Origin: a virus
Lineage: Duplodnaviria > Heunggongvirae > Uroviricota > Caudoviricetes
Strand: one strand, 5' to 3'
DNA length: 36,279 bases
Virus record (IMG/VR): IMGVR_UViG_2917393062_000005
Span: 1 to 36,279 of that record
A model generated the notes under the pieces. It was not told the DNA's origin, did no database searches, and was given only the letters and a program-made list of their open reading frames with translations. How positions within the stretch are numbered: position 1 is the first letter of the stretch; every line of letters starts with the position of its first letter. Shown here piece by piece: positions 26,329-36,279 of the stretch. The position numbers were made by a program, and so were the translations under genes.

Positions 26329-27288
26329 TTACTCCTTGTCCATTGCGTACAGCCCATTAACCAGAGCAAACTGTGGCACCCCGTCCGCGATGAAAGTCGC
26401 ATTAACTCCGCAGGCTTCGCGGATAGCGGGTGCCACAATCTCCGCCCCTCCACCGACAACCATCACCCGCCCGTAACCCGAAAAACCCGCCAGCGCGCGG
26501 ATCACGCGTTGTTTCAGTGTTTCTTCCTTTTCACGAATAACCGCCATCAGGCTGGCGTAATGCGCGTCATTGTGGATGTGCTGGCGCAGCCAGGCTTCAT
26601 CATGGCGATGTTCGATAATGGTATTGGCGATGTGGTGACTGGTGCGCATACCGTTAGTGGCCATCACCGACAGTACGGCATCGGCCATCAGAGAAACGCC
26701 TACGTGTGGATCGCAAAACACCTGGCTGATACCTGCCAGTTGCCCCTGAACCTTTGCCACATCCAGCGTGGTTCCGCCCAAATCCACAATCAGCAGGGAT
26801 TCAAACGGACTCATGTCAGCCAGTGCCTTAAAGCCAGCCGGAATGGATTCAGGCATAACCCGCACGTTACGGATAGTGAATGCTTCGCCGTTCTGGTACT
26901 CCACCGGGCGCATAACGTTCGCTTTTTTGCGGTTGATGTTGGCCATGTCCGGCTGTGCGTTTGTGTCGAAATACTCGCTCAGTGGCAGGGTGACAACCAC
27001 ATCCACCTCCTGTGGCGTGATGCCTGATTTGACCAGCGCGTGATGAATGGCAATGACATTTACATCGCTGTATTGGTATTGCGTGTCGGTTGTCTGGACA
27101 AAGCGATCGCTGACCGGATCAAAACCATAGCGCACTCCATCAAGCATGTAGTTCGCGGGCTGCATGCCACCGAACGGCGCAGACCATTCCGACTTGAAGC
27201 TGTTCGGGCTGATGGCGTTGCGGCGTTCGCCGTTCTCAGTCCATGCCAGCTTGATGTTGGTGGAGCCGTCGTCGATACAAATTTTCAT
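26329..27288 (-). CDS. parM: ParM/StbA actin-like partition ATPase
   Basis: 319 aa with the ParM motif series: IDDGSTNIKL, ISPNSF, QYSDVNV, HHAL, QPDMANI.RKKAN, VMPESIPAG, DLGGTTLD, GISQ, GVSL, VGGGAE, LVNGLY. Confidence 0.85.
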   Translation of the reverse strand: MKICIDDGSTNIKLAWTENGERRNAISPNSFKSEWSAPFGGMQPANYMLDGVRYGFDPVSDRFVQTTDTQYQYSDVNVIAIHHALVKSGITPQEVDVVVTLPLSEYFDTNAQPDMANINRKKANVMRPVEYQNGEAFTIRNVRVMPESIPAGFKALADMSPFESLLIVDLGGTTLDVAKVQGQLAGISQVFCDPHVGVSLMADAVLSVMATNGMRTSHHIANTIIEHRHDEAWLRQHIHNDAHYASLMAVIREKEETLKQRVIRALAGFSGYGRVMVVGGGAEIVAPAIREACGVNATFIADGVPQFALVNGLYAMDKE

Positions 27289-27440
27289 GTCGCTTTTCCT
27301 TATGTTGATTAATTAATCGTTTACGGGATTCTGAAATCCCGTTTTTGCCTGTTTTGCGCGCACTTCATGTTTTATGGCACGTTTTTTGCTCATTTACGGG
27401 ATTTGTGAATCCCATTTCTGTCTGTTTTTTGTTTCCACTG
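27289..27440. repeat. Two about 36-bp direct repeats, each with an 8-bp palindrome, upstream of parM; candidate parC-like centromere/operator
   Basis: TTTACGGGATTCTGAAATCCCGTTTTTGCCTGTTTT (about 27320-27355) and TTTACGGGATTTGTGAATCCCATTTCTGTCTGTTTT (about 27393-27430); the second lies within the A 3' end. Also a 12-bp palindrome GATTAATTAATC at 27306-27317. Confidence 0.5.
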
Positions 27441-30172
27441 GTCAGGCCACCCCGCAGCAGGTCTGCTTTGCGGTGGGCGCGTTCAGTGGTTTCACTGATT
27501 CTCTGTGCGTGCTCTGCGTCACGGATGGCGCGCAGCATGTCAGAAAGCACGGTAACGGGGGTTTTCATGGTGTTCTGGTCCTGCTGAAGTGTGGATGCCA
27601 GACGTGCGGCGGCTTCAGGGTCTGATGCCCCCAGCTGTGCCAGATAGCTGGCGACCGGGTTATGGCGGATCTCCGTGCTGCTTACGCCGTGATTACGGCT
27701 CAGGCGCTGCCAGAGCTGCGTGATTCGGCTGTCCGGGCGGGTATCCGGTTTGCGTACAATTTCAAATCCCTGCGGTGCAATGATGCTGCCGTCAACGTAC
27801 AGACTGCCGCCCCGTAACAGGTGCTGCATCTGTTGTTCACCGATATGCAGGCCGAGAGATTCAGCAGACTCCCGCCATTCTTTAGCGAGTAATTCGTGGT
27901 TATCAGGCAAAGGCCGCTGCTGTTTGCGGCTCTGTGTCCAGCTCTGCATTTCATCACTGCTGTTTTTTGCCTGTTTGTCACGCAGCGAACGCATCAGCGC
28001 CCGGCGTTCGTGCCGTTTCAGTGAGCGCATCCATTCGTTCACTTCAACGCCGTCAGGGAGCTGCGGCCACGGTGCTGGCCGTTCTTCCGGCTGTTCTGTC
28101 CCGTTGTTGTCCGTTTCCTGTACACGGGGACAGTTATTGCCACGAGTCCAAGGGGCGGCAGGGCCGCCCTGAAGGTCAAAACCATTTTCGTGGGTGCTGT
28201 CTTCCGCTTCCGGTTTACGTCTTACCAGCTTCCAGTTATCCGGGTGCGTGCACACACGGGAGGATTCCCCGATGAGTGGCGACCAGATCCCGTAAATCTG
28301 TACACTCTGTTCGCCGTAATCGTTCAGCTCATCTGCGAGGTCGTAGGCTGTGCGAATCAGGTAGTCCTTGCGCGGAACAAGTACGCCACCCTGTTTTTCA
28401 ATGTAGGTGGCAAAACACCCGGCATCAGCGGCAGCAAGAACCGCATCCATTGCGTCATCCTTCAGCCGTTGCGGGCCTTCCGGGTTGCGTGCCATCTGGC
28501 TGGCAAGGCGGCGGAGTTCACGCCACACCTGACGGGAGGGAATGCCAAAGAACTGGAACTGGCGGACCCGGTGAAGGCGCGCCCAGCCGATGGCGCGTTC
28601 CACGCTCTCGGCCATTGATTTTCCGGTTTCGTGGTCAACGCGTGGCTTGCCCGTTTTCGGGTCGATGCCATCCACGGCGCGGCTGTCCAGGTTCTTTCCG
28701 ATGTAGGTGGCGATGTAGCTGGTTGGTGTGCCTTTTGAGCCGTCGACATACTCCACCTTAAAGCGCGGAGTAATATCATTGCCCAGCTCGTGGCGGTCTT
28801 CCTGAATGGCAATATCGCGGGTGATGGCCACGATGCTGTCGATTTCTTCCGGATGAGCAAAGACCATCATGTGCCAGTGCACGGTGCCGTCATGGTGAGG
28901 CTCCACCGTGCGGATGCCATACCAGCGCAGGCCGTCGCGGTTCAGTTTTTTGCGGACCGCCGCAAAAAACGTGTTAACCAGGTAATCGCTGGAGTCGCGC
29001 ATGGTGGCTCCGTTCCATTTGGGATTCGGATGACCGTTCTCTGTTGTGGCGTGGTATTTTGACGGGCAGGTGACAGTCAGAAACACCGCTTTGTCGCCAC
29101 GGGCTTCGGCCAGAAGTTCCAGCCCCTTCATGGTGGCCATCATTTCTGCCTTACGGTGAACTGGGTTACTTACTCCCGCGTAATACACTGTCTCGAGATC
29201 AATAGTGAACCCGTCTTCGTTTTCCAGCATGAAACTTTTCAGAAAATCGCGTGTTTTCTCGCGCTGTGCGCGAAACTCGCTTAACGCGTCCTGGCTCAGA
29301 TAGGGCGATGTTTTTCTGGAAACCAGACAGGCGGCGCGGAGTTGTTCTTCTCTCCACTCGCAACGTAACAGCCACAGTTTGCGTTTCCACCATTGCGCAC
29401 AGGTCAGGCGAAGGATTGCGCCCGGTAACAGTTCCGTATCCGGATCGCTCTTGTTCAGGGCTTCGTAATGTGGCGGCATGATGTGCAGGCATAATGCGAT
29501 ACGGGCCAGCATCCGGTAAGCCTTCAACATTACATCCATGGTCAGCTCGCCATCTCTGGCACCAAAGCCATCGCAGAGTGTTTCGAAGGTGCTGCTGAAC
29601 ATCGCCGCCGTCATGGTGGCCAGCGTCTGTATCTGGTGCTTGTTGAGCTGCGGCAGGTAAAGCAAATCGTCCAGGCGTTCACGCCCGGCAAGGGAGCGAT
29701 AACCCGGTGTCAGCCAGCGTCCGTCAGTGCGATCCAGACGTTCGAATATTTTGCGCAGGGTTCCGCGTGCATAGCGTTCAGCCTGCCAGCTCTTTTTGCC
29801 TTTCTGACGATCGGCTTCCTGTTTTTTGCGCAGGAAGGAGAGGTGGCGAATAAGCGGATCGCGCAGATAGGACGGCAGCAGGCGCAGCGAGGCCATGGCT
29901 TCATCCACCGCGCCGCGTGCCTGTTTTCTGGCGTCTCCTGCCAGTGTGATGGTTTTGTCCTGTTTTTCCTGTGCGTCCAGGCTTTTATTAATCAGGTTGC
30001 CCAGCGGCGTGGCGGAGAACGCCGCATCAGCCATTTCCTGGCAGCGCTCGTTCTCTGCCCGGTAGGCATCCAGCCAGGAGGAAAGCGCGGATTCAGGAGT
30101 GGGGATCTCCGTTCCTTCACGCCCCACTGCGTGGCGCGGTTGTTGCCAGTCCCTGATGTACTCTGCCGTCAT
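27365..30172 (-). CDS. A: Replication initiation endonuclease A (rolling-circle, GPA family)
   Basis: 935 aa; tandem-tyrosine active-site motif PTSYIATYIGKNLDS typical of P2 gpA-like proteins; located upstream of the cos-proximal locus. Confidence 0.85.
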   Translation of the reverse strand: MTAEYIRDWQQPRHAVGREGTEIPTPESALSSWLDAYRAENERCQEMADAAFSATPLGNLINKSLDAQEKQDKTITLAGDARKQARGAVDEAMASLRLLPSYLRDPLIRHLSFLRKKQEADRQKGKKSWQAERYARGTLRKIFERLDRTDGRWLTPGYRSLAGRERLDDLLYLPQLNKHQIQTLATMTAAMFSSTFETLCDGFGARDGELTMDVMLKAYRMLARIALCLHIMPPHYEALNKSDPDTELLPGAILRLTCAQWWKRKLWLLRCEWREEQLRAACLVSRKTSPYLSQDALSEFRAQREKTRDFLKSFMLENEDGFTIDLETVYYAGVSNPVHRKAEMMATMKGLELLAEARGDKAVFLTVTCPSKYHATTENGHPNPKWNGATMRDSSDYLVNTFFAAVRKKLNRDGLRWYGIRTVEPHHDGTVHWHMMVFAHPEEIDSIVAITRDIAIQEDRHELGNDITPRFKVEYVDGSKGTPTSYIATYIGKNLDSRAVDGIDPKTGKPRVDHETGKSMAESVERAIGWARLHRVRQFQFFGIPSRQVWRELRRLASQMARNPEGPQRLKDDAMDAVLAAADAGCFATYIEKQGGVLVPRKDYLIRTAYDLADELNDYGEQSVQIYGIWSPLIGESSRVCTHPDNWKLVRRKPEAEDSTHENGFDLQGGPAAPWTRGNNCPRVQETDNNGTEQPEERPAPWPQLPDGVEVNEWMRSLKRHERRALMRSLRDKQAKNSSDEMQSWTQSRKQQRPLPDNHELLAKEWRESAESLGLHIGEQQMQHLLRGGSLYVDGSIIAPQGFEIVRKPDTRPDSRITQLWQRLSRNHGVSSTEIRHNPVASYLAQLGASDPEAAARLASTLQQDQNTMKTPVTVLSDMLRAIRDAEHAQRISETTERAHRKADLLRGGLTSGNKKQTEMGFTNPVNEQKTCHKT

Positions 30173-30178
30173 AGTGAT

Positions 30179-30544
30179 TTACTTCGTCATGCCATTCAGG
30201 GTGTCGCGGCAGACGGCAGCCAGCCGCTGAATTTCCAGCACGGTGTCTTCTGTGTCGGCATGGCGATGTGTGATGCGGATGCTGTCGGCAATCACATCGA
30301 CGATTGCAGAGGATGGGCGCTGGTAAATGCCAATAACGGACGGGGTGCCACCTTCAATGCGGTAAAGCCTGTAATTTCCCTCGTGGCTGTCAATCATGTA
30401 GCGACCATCAATAACAATCTTTCCGTCAGCGAGCTGCGGTACAGGCAGGGATTTCAGGTACATGTCATAACGATCACGCACGCGAGCGGCAAGATCACGT
30501 TCTGTGTTGAGCAGGTATTCAAGAAAGTCGTTGGCGAGAATCAT
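30179..30544 (-). CDS. Hypothetical early protein, 121 aa
   Basis: ORF immediately upstream of A on the same strand. Confidence 0.55.
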   Translation of the reverse strand: MILANDFLEYLLNTERDLAARVRDRYDMYLKSLPVPQLADGKIVIDGRYMIDSHEGNYRLYRIEGGTPSVIGIYQRPSSAIVDVIADSIRITHRHADTEDTVLEIQRLAAVCRDTLNGMTK

Positions 30545-30616
30545 TGCTGCAATCCTCTTGTTACAGATGTGCGAAGGCCTCCCGCCGCAAAGTGCAGGAA
30601 AGGCCTGGAACAGGAA

Positions 30617-30847
30617 TTAATGGAGTTTGTTTTGCTGCTCGATGAGCTGCTGAAGCTCGCGCAGATCATCCGCCAGATAGCTGAAAACAGAGGCGGAATA
30701 AATGTTTGATAGTGCGTGGCTGCGCTCATGCAGCATATTGATGTGCATGATTTGCGCGACGCGTGATGCGCGGGAAAGTCTGCGGTTGATTTCAGTCTGG
30801 ATGTGACGACGCTCCGCGATAGCGCGGTGCTGTTTGCGGTCTGCCAT
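30617..30847 (-). CDS. Hypothetical small protein, 76 aa
   Basis: ORF with AAAGAGG RBS 8 nt upstream of the ATG; balanced, helical-looking composition. Confidence 0.45.
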   Translation of the reverse strand: MADRKQHRAIAERRHIQTEINRRLSRASRVAQIMHINMLHERSHALSNIYSASVFSYLADDLRELQQLIEQQNKLH

Positions 30848-31023
30848 GGTGTGGCCTCTTTGCTCGGTGATAGAAATAACTCACCATCCAGAGTTGAGAA
30901 TCTCGGGGTGGCGAGACGTACAGGGTTCTCAACACCGGAGAGCAAAGAATCCGGCCCGACCGAAGTCGGCCCCGTACGCCCCGCCATAATTCTGACGCGA
31001 AAAAGACGTGGCAATACAGTACG

Positions 31024-31047
31024 CACAAAAAAACCGCTTGCGCGGTT
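31024..31047 (-). terminator. Rho-independent terminator on the minus strand inside the early region
   Basis: Plus-strand A7-AACCGC-TTGC-GCGGTT; on the minus strand this reads as hairpin then T7. Confidence 0.55.
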
Positions 31048-31169
31048 ATGCGCTTTGCTCTGTATCGGGTTGAGAATCCCGGCACCCGTTTTATGAGGTG
31101 CAGCGGAAATGTAACCTGACCGATTGAGGCATGGCAAGCGGTTTTTTTGTGTGTGCATGTTCTGGTTTC

Positions 31170-31469
31170 TTACTGGTTCAGAAAAAAATCAAAAACCTTG
31201 TCAATGCGTTGCAGCAGCTCTTGCTGTATTGCTTCCGGCGTTTCCGGTTCGCCCGGCGACTCCAATGTCGCGCAGAAATCAGCGATTTCATGATGGAGCG
31301 TCAGGCGAATGGCAGGAGCCGTGGTTCTGGCGTGCTCCAGCTCATCCAGCAGTGCCAGCACAGCAGACGGCGAGAGCATTGCGCGAAATGCCAGTAATTT
31401 TTGAGGCGTTGCCATTCGTTGCAGAGCAAATGCCAGTTCGCGTAGCTTCTGGTGGTTGATGTTGCTCAT
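31170..31469 (-). CDS. Hypothetical early protein, 99 aa
   Basis: ORF in the early operon; start overlaps the upstream gene's stop. Confidence 0.55.
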   Translation of the reverse strand: MSNINHQKLRELAFALQRMATPQKLLAFRAMLSPSAVLALLDELEHARTTAPAIRLTLHHEIADFCATLESPGEPETPEAIQQELLQRIDKVFDFFLNQ

Positions 31470-31732
31470 GTTCTGGCTTCCTTCAGTAGCTGGTTAAACA
31501 TGTGAGTAAGTGGATTGCTACACCCGAACGGCATCGGGTTTACGTGGTAAGAAGCCTGGCCTCCTGTTTTGCGAGCGCGACCACCTGTGCTGCGGTTTGT
31601 TCTGATGACTAAGCCGCCACGCCAAAGTCGGCGTAACTCAGCATTAATGGCTGTGGTTGGAGTATTCAGTGCTGCGGCGATATCTCCGCCGCTACAACCC
31701 GGATGAGTAGCGATGTAGTCCAGAATGGTCAT
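31466..31732 (-). CDS. Hypothetical early protein, 88 aa, possible winged-helix DNA-binding fold
   Basis: ORF with translationally coupled neighbours; GGDIAAALNTPTTAINAELRRLWRGGLV is helix-turn-helix-like. Confidence 0.5.
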   Translation of the reverse strand: MTILDYIATHPGCSGGDIAAALNTPTTAINAELRRLWRGGLVIRTNRSTGGRARKTGGQASYHVNPMPFGCSNPLTHMFNQLLKEART

Positions 31733-34454: not shown

Positions 34455-34742
34455 TTAAAGCCCCAGCCACAACAACCATGCATCGCGGCGTTCTTTCGGC
34501 TGATCAAAAAACGCTTTGCGCATACCTGCGTTAAATGCTGGCAGATATACCCAGTTTTCTGATGCTCGCGTCTTCACTGAACCTGGTTTCACAAAGTCAA
34601 TCGTTGGTAACTTTGCAGCGTCAATCATGGTTCTGACGGTTGATTCTTTGCGACCAATCATCTTGGCAAATAGTTGATATGGCACCGCTTCAAGTGGATA
34701 TGGTGCTACCTGAATGAACCCCTCAAGCTCTGATTCGCTCAT
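34455..34742 (-). CDS. cox: Cox-like excisionase / early transcriptional regulator
   Basis: AVPYQLFAKMIG...WVYLPAFNAGMRKAF...RDAWLLWLGL matches P2 Cox (AIPYQEFAKLIG...WVYLPAWNNGL...RDGWLMWLGL). Confidence 0.88.
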   Translation of the reverse strand: MSESELEGFIQVAPYPLEAVPYQLFAKMIGRKESTVRTMIDAAKLPTIDFVKPGSVKTRASENWVYLPAFNAGMRKAFFDQPKERRDAWLLWLGL

Positions 34743-34857
34743 TGTGGTAATCTCCTTAATTCGTCCAAATGGCCCAAAATGGCTTATATAGGCTTATTTT
34801 GGCTATTTGAATGTTTTGTATTACATGTAACCCAATAGCGTGGAGTTTAGATCACAT
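34743..34857. promoter_or_regulatory. Divergent Pe/Pc promoter-operator region between cox and C, with three direct repeats
   Basis: GGCTTATATA / GGCTTATTTT / GGCTATTTGA at about 10-bp spacing in the cox-C intergenic region; P2-type C repressors bind direct repeats. Confidence 0.5.
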
Positions 34858-35178
34858 ATGATCCATAAATCAAGCCTTGGAGAAAAACTTCGCCTGATTC
34901 GAGAGGCAGAGGGATTGTCACGTAGAGAGATGGAAGAGGTGACAGGGGTATCTCAAAACAATCTCAAAAATTATGAAATATTGGGAAGAATGATACCTGG
35001 AGAAACGTTACTCCTGATTTTGAATCATCCTCGTTTTCGGAAGTATTCGGATTGGGTGATGTTTAATCAAACTAATGCTGCGACGGGGCAGATTGCTCCG
35101 CCTCTCTCTCTTGATGGCTTCTTCGATTCGGAGGGAGATCAGGTTTCAACCGAAACAAGCCAAAAATCACCCCGCTAA
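34858..35178 (+). CDS. C: Immunity repressor C (P2 C family)
   Basis: MIHKSSLGEKLRLIREAEGLSRREMEEVTG aligns with P2 C (MSNTISEKIVLMRKSEYLSRQQLADLTG); about 106 aa from the ATG at 34858 (ORF track starts at 34840). Confidence 0.85.
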   Translation: MIHKSSLGEKLRLIREAEGLSRREMEEVTGVSQNNLKNYEILGRMIPGETLLLILNHPRFRKYSDWVMFNQTNAATGQIAPPLSLDGFFDSEGDQVSTETSQKSPR

Positions 35179-35274
35179 GGCCAGAAAACTGGTTAGACCT
35201 GCTCTTTGTCTGGTCTGATTATTGCTGGAAAGAGGCTGGAGAAATTGTAGAGCGGTTCATTGGAGGGCTTCGCA

Positions 35275-36279
35275 ATGTCAATTAAGAAGCTCGAAGATGG
35301 TCGTTATTTGCTGGACATCAGGCCGAACGGACGCAAGGGAAAGCGCGTGCGTAAGGTATTTGACAAAAAATCGGTAGCGGTGGCCACTGAACGCTACATC
35401 ATGGCGAACGCTGAAAAGCGGGAATATATACAGGGCTACCGTGATCGCCGAACGCTAAATGATTTGCTTGAGTTGTGGTGGATGTATCACGGTCAACACA
35501 GGCGTAAGGCGGAAGAAGACCGAAAACAACTGCGCAACATAATCAATGAGCTTGGCGCTGATATGCAGGCTGTGGATCTTGATAAGCTGAAAATTATCGC
35601 GTGGCGTTCTCAAAAGATAGCTGATGGATTGAAACCGTCATCTGCTAACAGGTACATGAATCGGTTATCCGGAATGTTTACCGTGCTGAAAAAAATAGGT
35701 CTTTGGGATGCAGAACATCCGGTAAGGGGAATTTCTATTCTTTATGTATCTCCACGAGAAATGGCGTTCCTGTCACAGAAGGAAGTTGCGTTATTGCTCG
35801 ATACATTGGAGGGCGATTACTGGCGTGTTGCTCTTTTGTGTTTAAGCACAGGAGCGCGCTGGAGTGAAGCCTGTAAGCTCCGTGGTGAACAGATAGTTCA
35901 TAACCGAGTGACGTTTCTTGAAACCAAAAATGGCCGAAAGAGAACAGTGCCAATTTCGCAGGCAGTTTGTGAGGCGATCAAAACCAGAGAAACAGGCAGC
36001 TTGTTTGAGGTGAAGTACCGGGAATTCTGTCTGGCGCTGAAAAGAGTTAAGCCCGATTTGCCAAAAGGCCAGGCTGCACATGTGCTGCGGCATACGTTCG
36101 CCAGCCATTTTGTGATGAACGGAGGAAACATTATTGCGCTTCAGAAGATTCTTGGCCACGCAACCATTCAGCAAACAATGGCATATGCACATTTTGCACC
36201 GGATTACCTGCAGGATGCGGTGGCCCTTAATCCGCTGAAAGGTGGCGTAAGTGTCCACGCAGTGTCCACGGGGGATTAA
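35275..36279 (+). CDS. int: Tyrosine integrase (P2 Int family)
   Basis: MSIKKLEDGRYLLDIRPNGRKGKRVRKVFDKKS matches the P2 Int N-terminus; catalytic-region motifs LSTGARWSEA, HVLRHTFASH and MAYAHF. The ORF track starts at 35260. Confidence 0.93.
   Translation: MSIKKLEDGRYLLDIRPNGRKGKRVRKVFDKKSVAVATERYIMANAEKREYIQGYRDRRTLNDLLELWWMYHGQHRRKAEEDRKQLRNIINELGADMQAVDLDKLKIIAWRSQKIADGLKPSSANRYMNRLSGMFTVLKKIGLWDAEHPVRGISILYVSPREMAFLSQKEVALLLDTLEGDYWRVALLCLSTGARWSEACKLRGEQIVHNRVTFLETKNGRKRTVPISQAVCEAIKTRETGSLFEVKYREFCLALKRVKPDLPKGQAAHVLRHTFASHFVMNGGNIIALQKILGHATIQQTMAYAHFAPDYLQDAVALNPLKGGVSVHAVSTGD
36252..36264. repeat. Candidate attR core (TGTCCACGCAGTG) inside the int 3' end
   Basis: Identical to 1162-1174, with partial matches in the flanks. 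Confidence 0.5.

Follow-up and report, generated by a model that had tools for sequence, protein, structure and literature searches.

A predicted C4/IsrK-type RNA module ahead of an epsilon-like gene and the replication gene of a P88-like prophage

Pairs of an IsrK-type leader and a C4-type antisense RNA are known from P4-like satellites, from P1, P7 and N15, and from lambdoid and APSE phages (PMC3632133; PMC7313666), and IsrK corresponds to seqA of P4 and C4 to its CI RNA (PMC3632133). Here we consider the segment at positions 30,848 to 31,169 of IMG/VR virus record IMGVR_UViG_2917393062_000005, the full 36,279 nucleotides (nt) of which we call the window. The segment is read on the minus strand of a P88-like prophage, in the early operon, directly upstream of a gene for a homologue of the P4 epsilon protein and of the replication gene A, and its sequence indicates that it is a complete module of the C4/IsrK type. 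In the literature we found no paper on such a module in P88-like or other P2-like phages, or on its coupling to an epsilon homologue there. The kind of module is well known from P1/P7 C4, P4 CI/seqA and Gifsy-1 IsrK/STnc1160, and the locus adds no new mechanism or principle.

Relation to P4, P1/P7 and Gifsy-1

The immunity region of P4 is ordered PLE, seqA leader, CI RNA (seqB), seqC, eta, epsilon, orf151, orf106 and alpha, and the order of leader, C4, epsilon-like gene (epsilon'), orf121 and A in the window parallels it. In P4 itself, the Rfam models recover the pair in the same order as in the window, with 60.8 bits for isrK and 74.9 bits for C4, and these matches, the seqA leader and the CI RNA, precede epsilon and the replication gene. 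The two loci share an antisense logic of two elements, in which the target called a2 is placed on the Shine-Dalgarno sequence of the following open reading frame (ORF), as well as an epsilon homologue followed by a replication gene and a -35 hexamer of the TTGCC type just upstream of the leader. They differ in that epsilon' follows C4 directly in the window, with no eta in between, and in that the spacer from leader to C4 is 35 nt in the window and about 108 nt in P4. Furthermore, for replication the window has a P2-type A nickase and P4 the alpha primase-helicase, the host element of the window is a complete P2-like phage of the helper type rather than a satellite, and a 21-nt inverted repeat formed by an upstream arm and the leader terminator in the window is absent from P4. 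The locus thus provides an evolutionary link, in the form of an immunity RNA combined with an epsilon-type derepressor that is common to P2-like phages of the helper type and satellites of the P4 type.

The immI C4 RNA of P1 and P7 was reportedly described by Citron and Schuster in 1990. This RNA, which controls icd-ant and belongs to the same Rfam family (RF01695), has the same fold as its counterpart in the window and the same arrangement, in which the antisense elements a' and b' face one target pair upstream (a1/b1) and another downstream (a2/b2). In both cases a2/b2 are placed on the ribosome-binding site of the first ORF and the cargo is of the anti-repressor type, and differences in a'/b' give heteroimmunity in P1/P7. 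Unlike in P1/P7, the cargo in the window is epsilon-like and not Icd/Ant, the upstream targets are situated in a terminated leader of the IsrK type, and the context is P2-like.

In the isrK-orf45(STnc1160)-anrP locus of Gifsy-1 (RF01394; Hershko-Shalev et al., 2016, PMC4825925), the leader has its own promoter and a leaky intrinsic terminator, a stable C4-like RNA lies downstream, and translation of the anti-repressor depends on an interplay of RNAs. The window resembles it in the complementarity of a leader loop to the C4 region and in the order of leader, intrinsic terminator and C4, and it would share the other features through a predicted leader promoter and the predicted control of its cargo. 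The binding of IsrK to Hfq and its trans-activation of downstream translation are experimentally determined properties, and the IsrK/STnc1160 mechanism and the analogy with P4 seqA/CI have been set out in the same study (PMC4825925). The cargo of Gifsy-1 is a Rha-type anti-repressor that is expressed via a translated ORF of 45 codons, whereas the corresponding frame in the window comprises 148 to 205 codons without coding constraint. Unlike in Gifsy-1, the cargo in the window has its own Shine-Dalgarno sequence under a2, and an antiterminator circuit of the antQ type is not evident in the window.

Leader RNA, antisense RNA and their targets

The segment carries a predicted sigma-70 promoter, TTGCCA-18-TACATT (31108..31137, minus strand; -35 at 31137-31132, -10 at 31113-31108), the -10 of which is invariant in all eight aligned relatives and the -35 of which is TTGCCA in seven of them and TTGCCC in one. 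The promoter scan places the predicted +1 at about 31101, which is the first base of the IsrK model, and the promoter is the positional equivalent of PLE in P4 and PisrK in Gifsy-1. A second promoter-like site at 31014..30986 was rejected, since transcription from it would begin within the stem of C4 and no conservation is seen in its -35.

The IsrK/SeqA-type leader RNA spans 75 nt on the minus strand (31027..31101) and matches RF01394 with 63.1 bits against a gathering threshold of 50. It displays the two 5' hairpins and the Rho-independent terminator of the IsrK/SeqA family, and the fold of the single sequence reproduces the family consensus. The first hairpin extends over 31101..31082 and the second over 31081..31066, with target b1 (GAUUCUCAAC, 31078..31069) unpaired in the loop of the latter; target a1 (AGAGCAAAG, 31061..31053) follows in a single-stranded linker. 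The leader ends in the intrinsic terminator at 31047..31027, AACCGC-GCAA-GCGGTT with a T-run, which a first-pass annotation of this DNA had already pointed out and which the terminator scan recovered. The Rfam model c4-a1b1 stays below threshold on the leader (15.9 versus 46.7 bits), a region that is covered by isrK instead.

The C4/CI-type antisense RNA is located at 30904..30991 on the minus strand, 88 nt in the Rfam model, and matches RF01695 over its full length (model positions 1-87) with 78.5 bits against a gathering threshold of 45 (E 6e-14). The isrK and C4 matches are adjacent, collinear and in the right order on the same strand. The minimum free energy (MFE) fold of C4 is identical to the family consensus (z = -4.9), with a long closing stem and two internal hairpins, one of them capped by UUCG, and a tRNA-like acceptor-type stem followed by ACC is visible at the RNA. 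Two elements are unpaired in this fold, namely a' (UCUUUGCUCU, 30948..30939) in the loop of the second hairpin and b' (GUUGAGAA, 30933..30926) in a single-stranded joint, and both have exact complements of 8-10 nt in the leader at 31078..31053 and downstream of C4 at 30902..30857. The downstream target region (30857..30902, minus strand) consists of b2 (GAUUCUCAAC, 30902..30893), a small hairpin (30885..30866) and a2 (GAGCAAAGA, 30865..30857), which overlaps the Shine-Dalgarno sequence AAGAGG (30860..30855) of the epsilon-like gene, 7 nt before its ATG at 30847. Score and fold, two exposed elements with flanking target pairs, and a downstream target on the ribosome-binding site are thus all found here, as in other members of the C4 family.

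The repeats named by the first-pass annotation are all present, at or within 3 nt of where it placed them. The sequence GTTGAGAATC occurs twice exactly, at 30893-30902 and 31069-31078, and the inverted near-copy GGTTCTCAAC exists as described, although it sits at 30924-30933 and not at about 30921. Since the module is read from the minus strand, b2 and b1 appear on the plus strand as the two copies of GTTGAGAATC and b' as the inverted near-copy, and the terminator that had been noted is that of the leader. What had been taken for an 8-bp stem between GTTGAGAATC and GGTTCTCAAC is accordingly a set of target sites and the antisense element of a C4-type RNA. A second repeated element had been overlooked, as had the promoter and the C4 fold: GAGCAAAG is found at 30940-30947 and CTTTGCTC at 30858-30865 and 31053-31060, all on the plus strand, and the a1/a'/a2 triplet is formed by GAGCAAAG/CUUUGCUC. 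By itself, the 10-nt direct repeat is marginal, a repeat of 10 nt being reached in 12 of 300 dinucleotide shuffles, and it owes its significance to the three-way covariation in relatives.

The same pair of isrK and C4 matches is present in five relatives. An alignment of eight sequences shows hardly any variation in the backbone but joint changes in a'/a1/a2 and in b'/b1/b2, which amount to seven specificities. For a wider sample, IMG/VR was scanned for the invariant 21-nt core of C4, which is identical in P88-like phages and P4-like satellites. The scan gave 119 loci and, with other loci added, 125 copies of C4; a search of genome contigs with the 76-amino acid (aa) epsilon-like protein alone gave 3 loci. 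The 125 copies parse into 26 a'/b' combinations on a near-invariant backbone, and almost all of them have cognate targets of 7-10 nt on both sides, whereas non-cognate complementarity is far shorter. Among 57 distinct epsilon-type modules, column entropy is concentrated in b1, a1, a', b', b2 and a2, and within the C4 RNA it is confined to a' and b'.

The pairing itself was quantified in an alignment of 20 specificities. On the upstream side 95.6% of the cells are paired, as compared to about 67% after shuffling and 26-54% when the sequences are slid, and 11 of 17 pairs have changed on both sides; downstream, the corresponding values are 95.3%, about 67% and 41-48%, and both sides have changed in 10 of 17 pairs. 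G-U wobble is tolerated between targets and antisense elements, and the summed duplex energies average about -24 kcal/mol in cognate combinations, compared to about -12 in non-cognate ones. Structure and covariation analysis across related prophages, which had been proposed as a check, thus returned both consensus folds and target/antisense covariation, and in our view this argues strongly for an action of the repeats through RNA-RNA pairing and for a diversifying specificity encoded in them. The suggestions of a small regulatory RNA and of a checkpoint before the replication genes are likewise supported. With at least 26 two-site antisense specificities on a near-identical backbone, the family should be useful for studies of RNA-based heteroimmunity and for the design of orthogonal RNA regulators.

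One locus (L014, 5192-5452) departs from the general pattern in that its leader b1 (UUCUCAC-like) mismatches its own b'/b2 (GUGGAAA/UUUCCAC), with agreement among a1, a' and a2, which suggests a recombination that left this locus with an upstream target that does not fit. The strands of the b pairing are also swapped between groups. When P4 (L007, 4440-4470) and IMG/VR loci of the P4 type (L025, for example) are compared with 30926-30933 in the window, C4 RNAs of the P88 type are purine-rich in b' (GUUGAGAA, GUGGAAA), whereas CI RNAs of the P4 type are pyrimidine-rich (UUCUCAC, UUUCCAC) and face purine-rich targets. It follows from this swap that the antisense RNAs of the helper type and the satellite type are partly complementary to each other.

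The cargo of the module is a 76-aa epsilon-like gene (30617..30847, minus strand), a homologue of P4 epsilon, which acts in helper derepression. The protein scores 32.2 bits against the Pfam family PF25738 (Derepression), above the cut-off of 27, and the family profile aligns to P4 epsilon over 63 columns with 95.4% probability (hhalign, E 1.7e-8), a relationship that tblastn recovered as well. The ratio of non-synonymous to synonymous polymorphism (pN/pS) is 0.42 in this frame compared to 1.15 and 0.96 in the other two, and judging from this constraint the ORF is a real gene. The same C4 core also heads three further cargos, which are Rha-type anti-repressors, P22-type anti-repressors with Bro-N/P22_AR domains and P4 eta-like ORFs, so that, with the epsilon-like Derepression family, all four cargos are of anti-repressor types. 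In each of these four contexts a2 lies on or next to the Shine-Dalgarno sequence or the start codon. Gene A invariably comes after modules of the epsilon type, about 800 nt below the C4 core in most cases and at 817-820 nt where the intervening gene is a different one.

Mode of action and competing explanations

We consider it highly probable that the segment provides secondary immunity through RNA, as a module of the type of P1 C4, P4 CI and Gifsy-1 IsrK placed in the early operon of a P88-like prophage, and most likely it holds back the anti-repressor-like gene together with the replication gene that follows. The promoter prediction and the homologues suggest that a constitutive internal promoter would fire in the lysogen; lysogens of Gifsy-1 express the homologous IsrK and STnc1160 at high levels under all conditions tested (PMC7067206). 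By analogy with IsrK, most transcripts would end at the intrinsic terminator to give a leader of about 75 nt, and some would read through. The read-through RNA may then be processed into a stable C4 RNA of about 80-90 nt, with RNase P cutting its 5' end as in P1 and P4. As sequence and covariation show, a' and b' of this RNA pair with b2 and a2 on any mRNA that crosses the region. By analogy with P1 icd/ant and P4 kil/eta, translation of epsilon' would then be blocked, and Rho-dependent polarity could in turn keep orf121 and A off. The leader bears an identical target pair, and b1/a1 may therefore be a partner of C4 in cis or a decoy in trans that sets the switch point, in keeping with what has been reported for IsrK (PMC4825925). 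The hypervariable a/b "barcode" would set the specificity of immunity between near-identical phages; the variation is observed, and its selective reason is our interpretation.

The 15-mer AAAAAAACCGCTTGC at 31027-31041, which covers part of the leader terminator, recurs as its inverse GCAAGCGGTTTTTTT at 31134-31148, both exactly as annotated at first pass. The inverted repeat is longer than had been noted, namely 18 nt when exact and 21 nt with one mismatch (31021-31041/31134-31154), and an exact repeat of 18 nt exceeds those in all of 300 dinucleotide shuffles (mean 8.6, maximum 16). The upstream arm (ACACACAAAAAAACCGCUUGC, 31134..31154, minus strand) is located above the predicted transcription start and has complementarity to the terminator from its loop through the 3' stem to the U-tract. 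Its core, CACAAAAAAACCGCTTGCC, is invariant in eight of eight aligned relatives, although the genes above it differ. Epsilon-type loci in which the terminator is correctly located have an upstream complement of 15-18 nt; modules of the P4, Rha and Bro types lack the arm, and the other cargo contexts show only 8-nt complements upstream of their own terminators. In MFE folds of RNAs that start further upstream, a long-range helix with the arm replaces the terminator hairpin, in the window as well as in two relatives and even when the RNA is truncated before the U-tract, whereas an RNA that starts at 31101 folds into the terminator hairpin. It is plausible, on thermodynamic prediction, that the leader terminator is sensitive to the promoter of origin and that the arm is a candidate antiterminator only in transcripts from further upstream. 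Early transcripts from the far-upstream promoter Pe, which carry the arm (31154..31134), may in this manner pass the leader terminator.

Several observations weigh against this interpretation or parts of it. The promoter matches the consensus at only 9 of 12 positions and is a prediction. The arm holds an A7 tract in the position of an UP element (-47..-41) and the first bases of the -35, and it may alternatively be just that, an UP element together with the -35; moreover, both arms of the inverted repeat are invariant in the epsilon-type loci, so that the test for arm/terminator covariation lends the antiterminator no support. The sequence is compatible with a translation block, Rho polarity or the leader terminator as the mode of repression, and the activity of the epsilon-like protein as an anti-repressor is suggested by 29% identity to P4 epsilon. 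The early operon is long and already under the control of C, and the module comes about 3.7 kb into it, whereas the modules of P1 and P4 form the start of their operons, and from this internal position it is hard to see what the module contributes beyond control by the C repressor. Finally, two Xuanwuviruses, 520873 and 503458, lack the module, which means that the cassette is accessory and not essential to this type of phage; judging from these genomes, it is dispensable or has been lost in some Xuanwuvirus lineages.

An alternative is that activation of the Gifsy-1 type dominates, such that b1/a1 of the leader pairs with C4 in cis to keep the mRNA silent, the short leader activates in trans by unfolding this pairing, and C4 is not a free repressor in trans. 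This mode was shown experimentally at the homologous isrK-orf45-anrP locus (PMC4825925), the upstream sites b1/a1 are as conserved as the downstream sites and co-vary with a'/b' to the same extent, and the 262-nt read-through RNA is highly structured (MFE z = -4.3). On the other hand, b2/a2 co-vary equally well, which would be unneeded if the pairing of leader and C4 were all that mattered, and the C4 homologue STnc1160 is a stable and separate species in Salmonella. In P1/P7 and P4, furthermore, the processed C4/CI RNA is the genetically defined immunity factor that acts in trans (summarised in PMC4825925 and PMC3632133). We therefore regard dominance of the activation mode as possible but rather unlikely. 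The two modes are not mutually exclusive.

Returning to the reading of the segment as a secondary immunity module, we can also imagine a broader scenario, in which the barcode is under diversifying selection and serves RNA-based kin discrimination or exclusion among P2-like phages and their satellites, the leader terminator responds to the promoter of origin, and the epsilon-like protein antagonizes the phage's own C repressor. Taken together, these propositions are speculative and we think it doubtful that all of them hold. If they did, the cassette would block expression of epsilon and the replication gene of incoming elements with the same barcode, and transcripts from the internal promoter would terminate, whereas early transcripts from Pe would fold into the antiterminator and read through.

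A protein-coding explanation was also considered, because the segment is traversed by an ORF of 205 aa (30541..31158, minus strand), which also takes in the whole epsilon-like gene in another frame. The product of this ORF is labeled "transcriptional regulator" in P884B11, PGAP calls it "similar to ash family protein", and it has a weak match to Phage_ASH (Pfam PF10554) as well as PHROG matches to regulators. The frame is uninterrupted in about 78 of the 84 epsilon-type loci, it ends in an ATGA that overlaps the start of orf121 (30544), and it stays open in just 6.4% of the trials when the epsilon-like gene is resampled synonymously. A conserved AUG at the C4 5' end (30987) belongs to this frame as well, and its equivalent starts the translated orf45 in Gifsy-1 (PMC4825925). 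However, the Phage_ASH match reaches only 18.6 bits against a cut-off of 26, and pN/pS is 1.15 over the overlap with the epsilon-like gene, as compared to 0.42 for the epsilon frame. The PHROG matches are limited to the translated RNA region and derive from anti-repressor gene calls, over-extended at the N-terminus, in phages in which the C4 frame continues into that of the cargo. In addition, the frame is shifted or stopped in 6 of the 84 loci and absent from Bro-type loci, the ATG of the ORF (31158) is upstream of the predicted transcription start, and the variable positions follow RNA complementarity and not codon structure. The equivalent "cI ORF" of P4 has been reported to act as an RNA (PMC4825925). 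We thus judge it very unlikely that the segment encodes an Ash-family protein or a regulator; the persistently open frame may be a coupling ORF similar to orf45 of Gifsy-1 or a product of chance, an oddity rather than evidence for a protein. The earlier view that the segment is not convincingly coding thereby holds, also in the light of relatives, in which an ORF is annotated across the segment and yet the repeats are conserved and co-vary. In current annotations this stretch is left blank, as in the RefSeq record examined, or is called "similar to ash family protein" or, mistakenly, a 205-aa "transcriptional regulator", and its identification as an RNA module corrects these labels.

That the repeats are binding sites for a protein or origin-associated DNA elements such as iterons or an operator, as had also been suggested, is barely credible, since the proximity to gene A and the short motifs in direct and inverted orientation are outweighed by the covariation of one inverted and two direct copies as antisense and sense with tolerance of G-U, a signature of RNA pairing, by the 26 motif combinations on a near-invariant backbone, by the presence of the same cassette ahead of non-replication cargo in lambdoid phages, and by the location of the P2-type origin inside gene A.

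Prophage setting and variation at the locus

With 91-95% identity to the phages P88, P884B11, PhiR44_2 and Shae_phiSM, the window is a P88-like prophage of the P2-like genus Xuanwuvirus (Peduoviridae), and the stretch 30600-31480 is found in 1,288 of 5,426 complete Escherichia coli genomes, about a quarter. An integrase gene (35260..36279, plus strand) and a gene for a C-type repressor with a helix-turn-helix motif (34840..35178, plus strand) face the Cox gene (34742..34455, minus strand). The long early operon on the minus strand then runs from Cox through about ten small genes to the segment, the 76-aa gene, orf121, A and ParM. On its two sides, the segment is flanked by minus-strand ORFs, a 99-aa Ead-like ORF that ends at 31170 and the 76-aa ORF that starts at 30847.

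Downstream of the epsilon-like gene, orf121 (30179..30544, minus strand; phrog_3237) has no assigned function and showed no similarity to orf151 or orf106 of P4. The replication endonuclease A (27365..30172, minus strand; Phage_GPA) is 935 aa long and has an extension of about 440 aa past the GPA domain (residues 179-498). Directly downstream of A is a gene for an actin-like segregation protein of the ParM type (26329-27288, minus strand) with StbA_N and ParM C-terminal domains.

P88 has been recovered after treatment with mitomycin C (PMC5285337). We searched for LexA boxes near the module and elsewhere, and the matches were no commoner than expected by chance, with none in the segment, so that a link to the SOS response is not evident. 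By eye, a terminator-like hairpin can be seen on the plus strand at 31120-31148, CCGATTG-8 nt-CAAGCGG with one mismatch followed by T7, antisense to the module promoter; it was not in the output of the scan.

In Escherichia phages 520873 (L010, 2935-3077) and 503458 (L011), a deletion that takes out the Ead-like ORF, the leader, C4 and most of epsilon' fuses a MarR-like gene to the last 40 nt or so of the epsilon-like gene. A contig assigned to Vagococcus sp. WN89Y (NZ_JBQPOM010000071.1; L006, 226 kb) contains a prophage of the P88 type, in which the epsilon-like gene is 88% identical and leader and C4 are matched in full, and the presence of such a prophage in an assembly from a Gram-positive bacterium probably reflects enterobacterial contamination. 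In phage P88 (L002, 4500-5650), and in IMG/VR loci where the distance from the Ead-like gene down to the C4 core is about 1,060 or 1,585 nt and not about 497 nt, extra genes (lipoprotein/serine protease, membrane protein) have been inserted directly upstream of the module, behind a hairpin of their own. Homology between phages restarts exactly at CACAAAAAAACCGCTTGCC, which marks the 5' edge of the module as a hotspot for recombination or for the insertion of morons.

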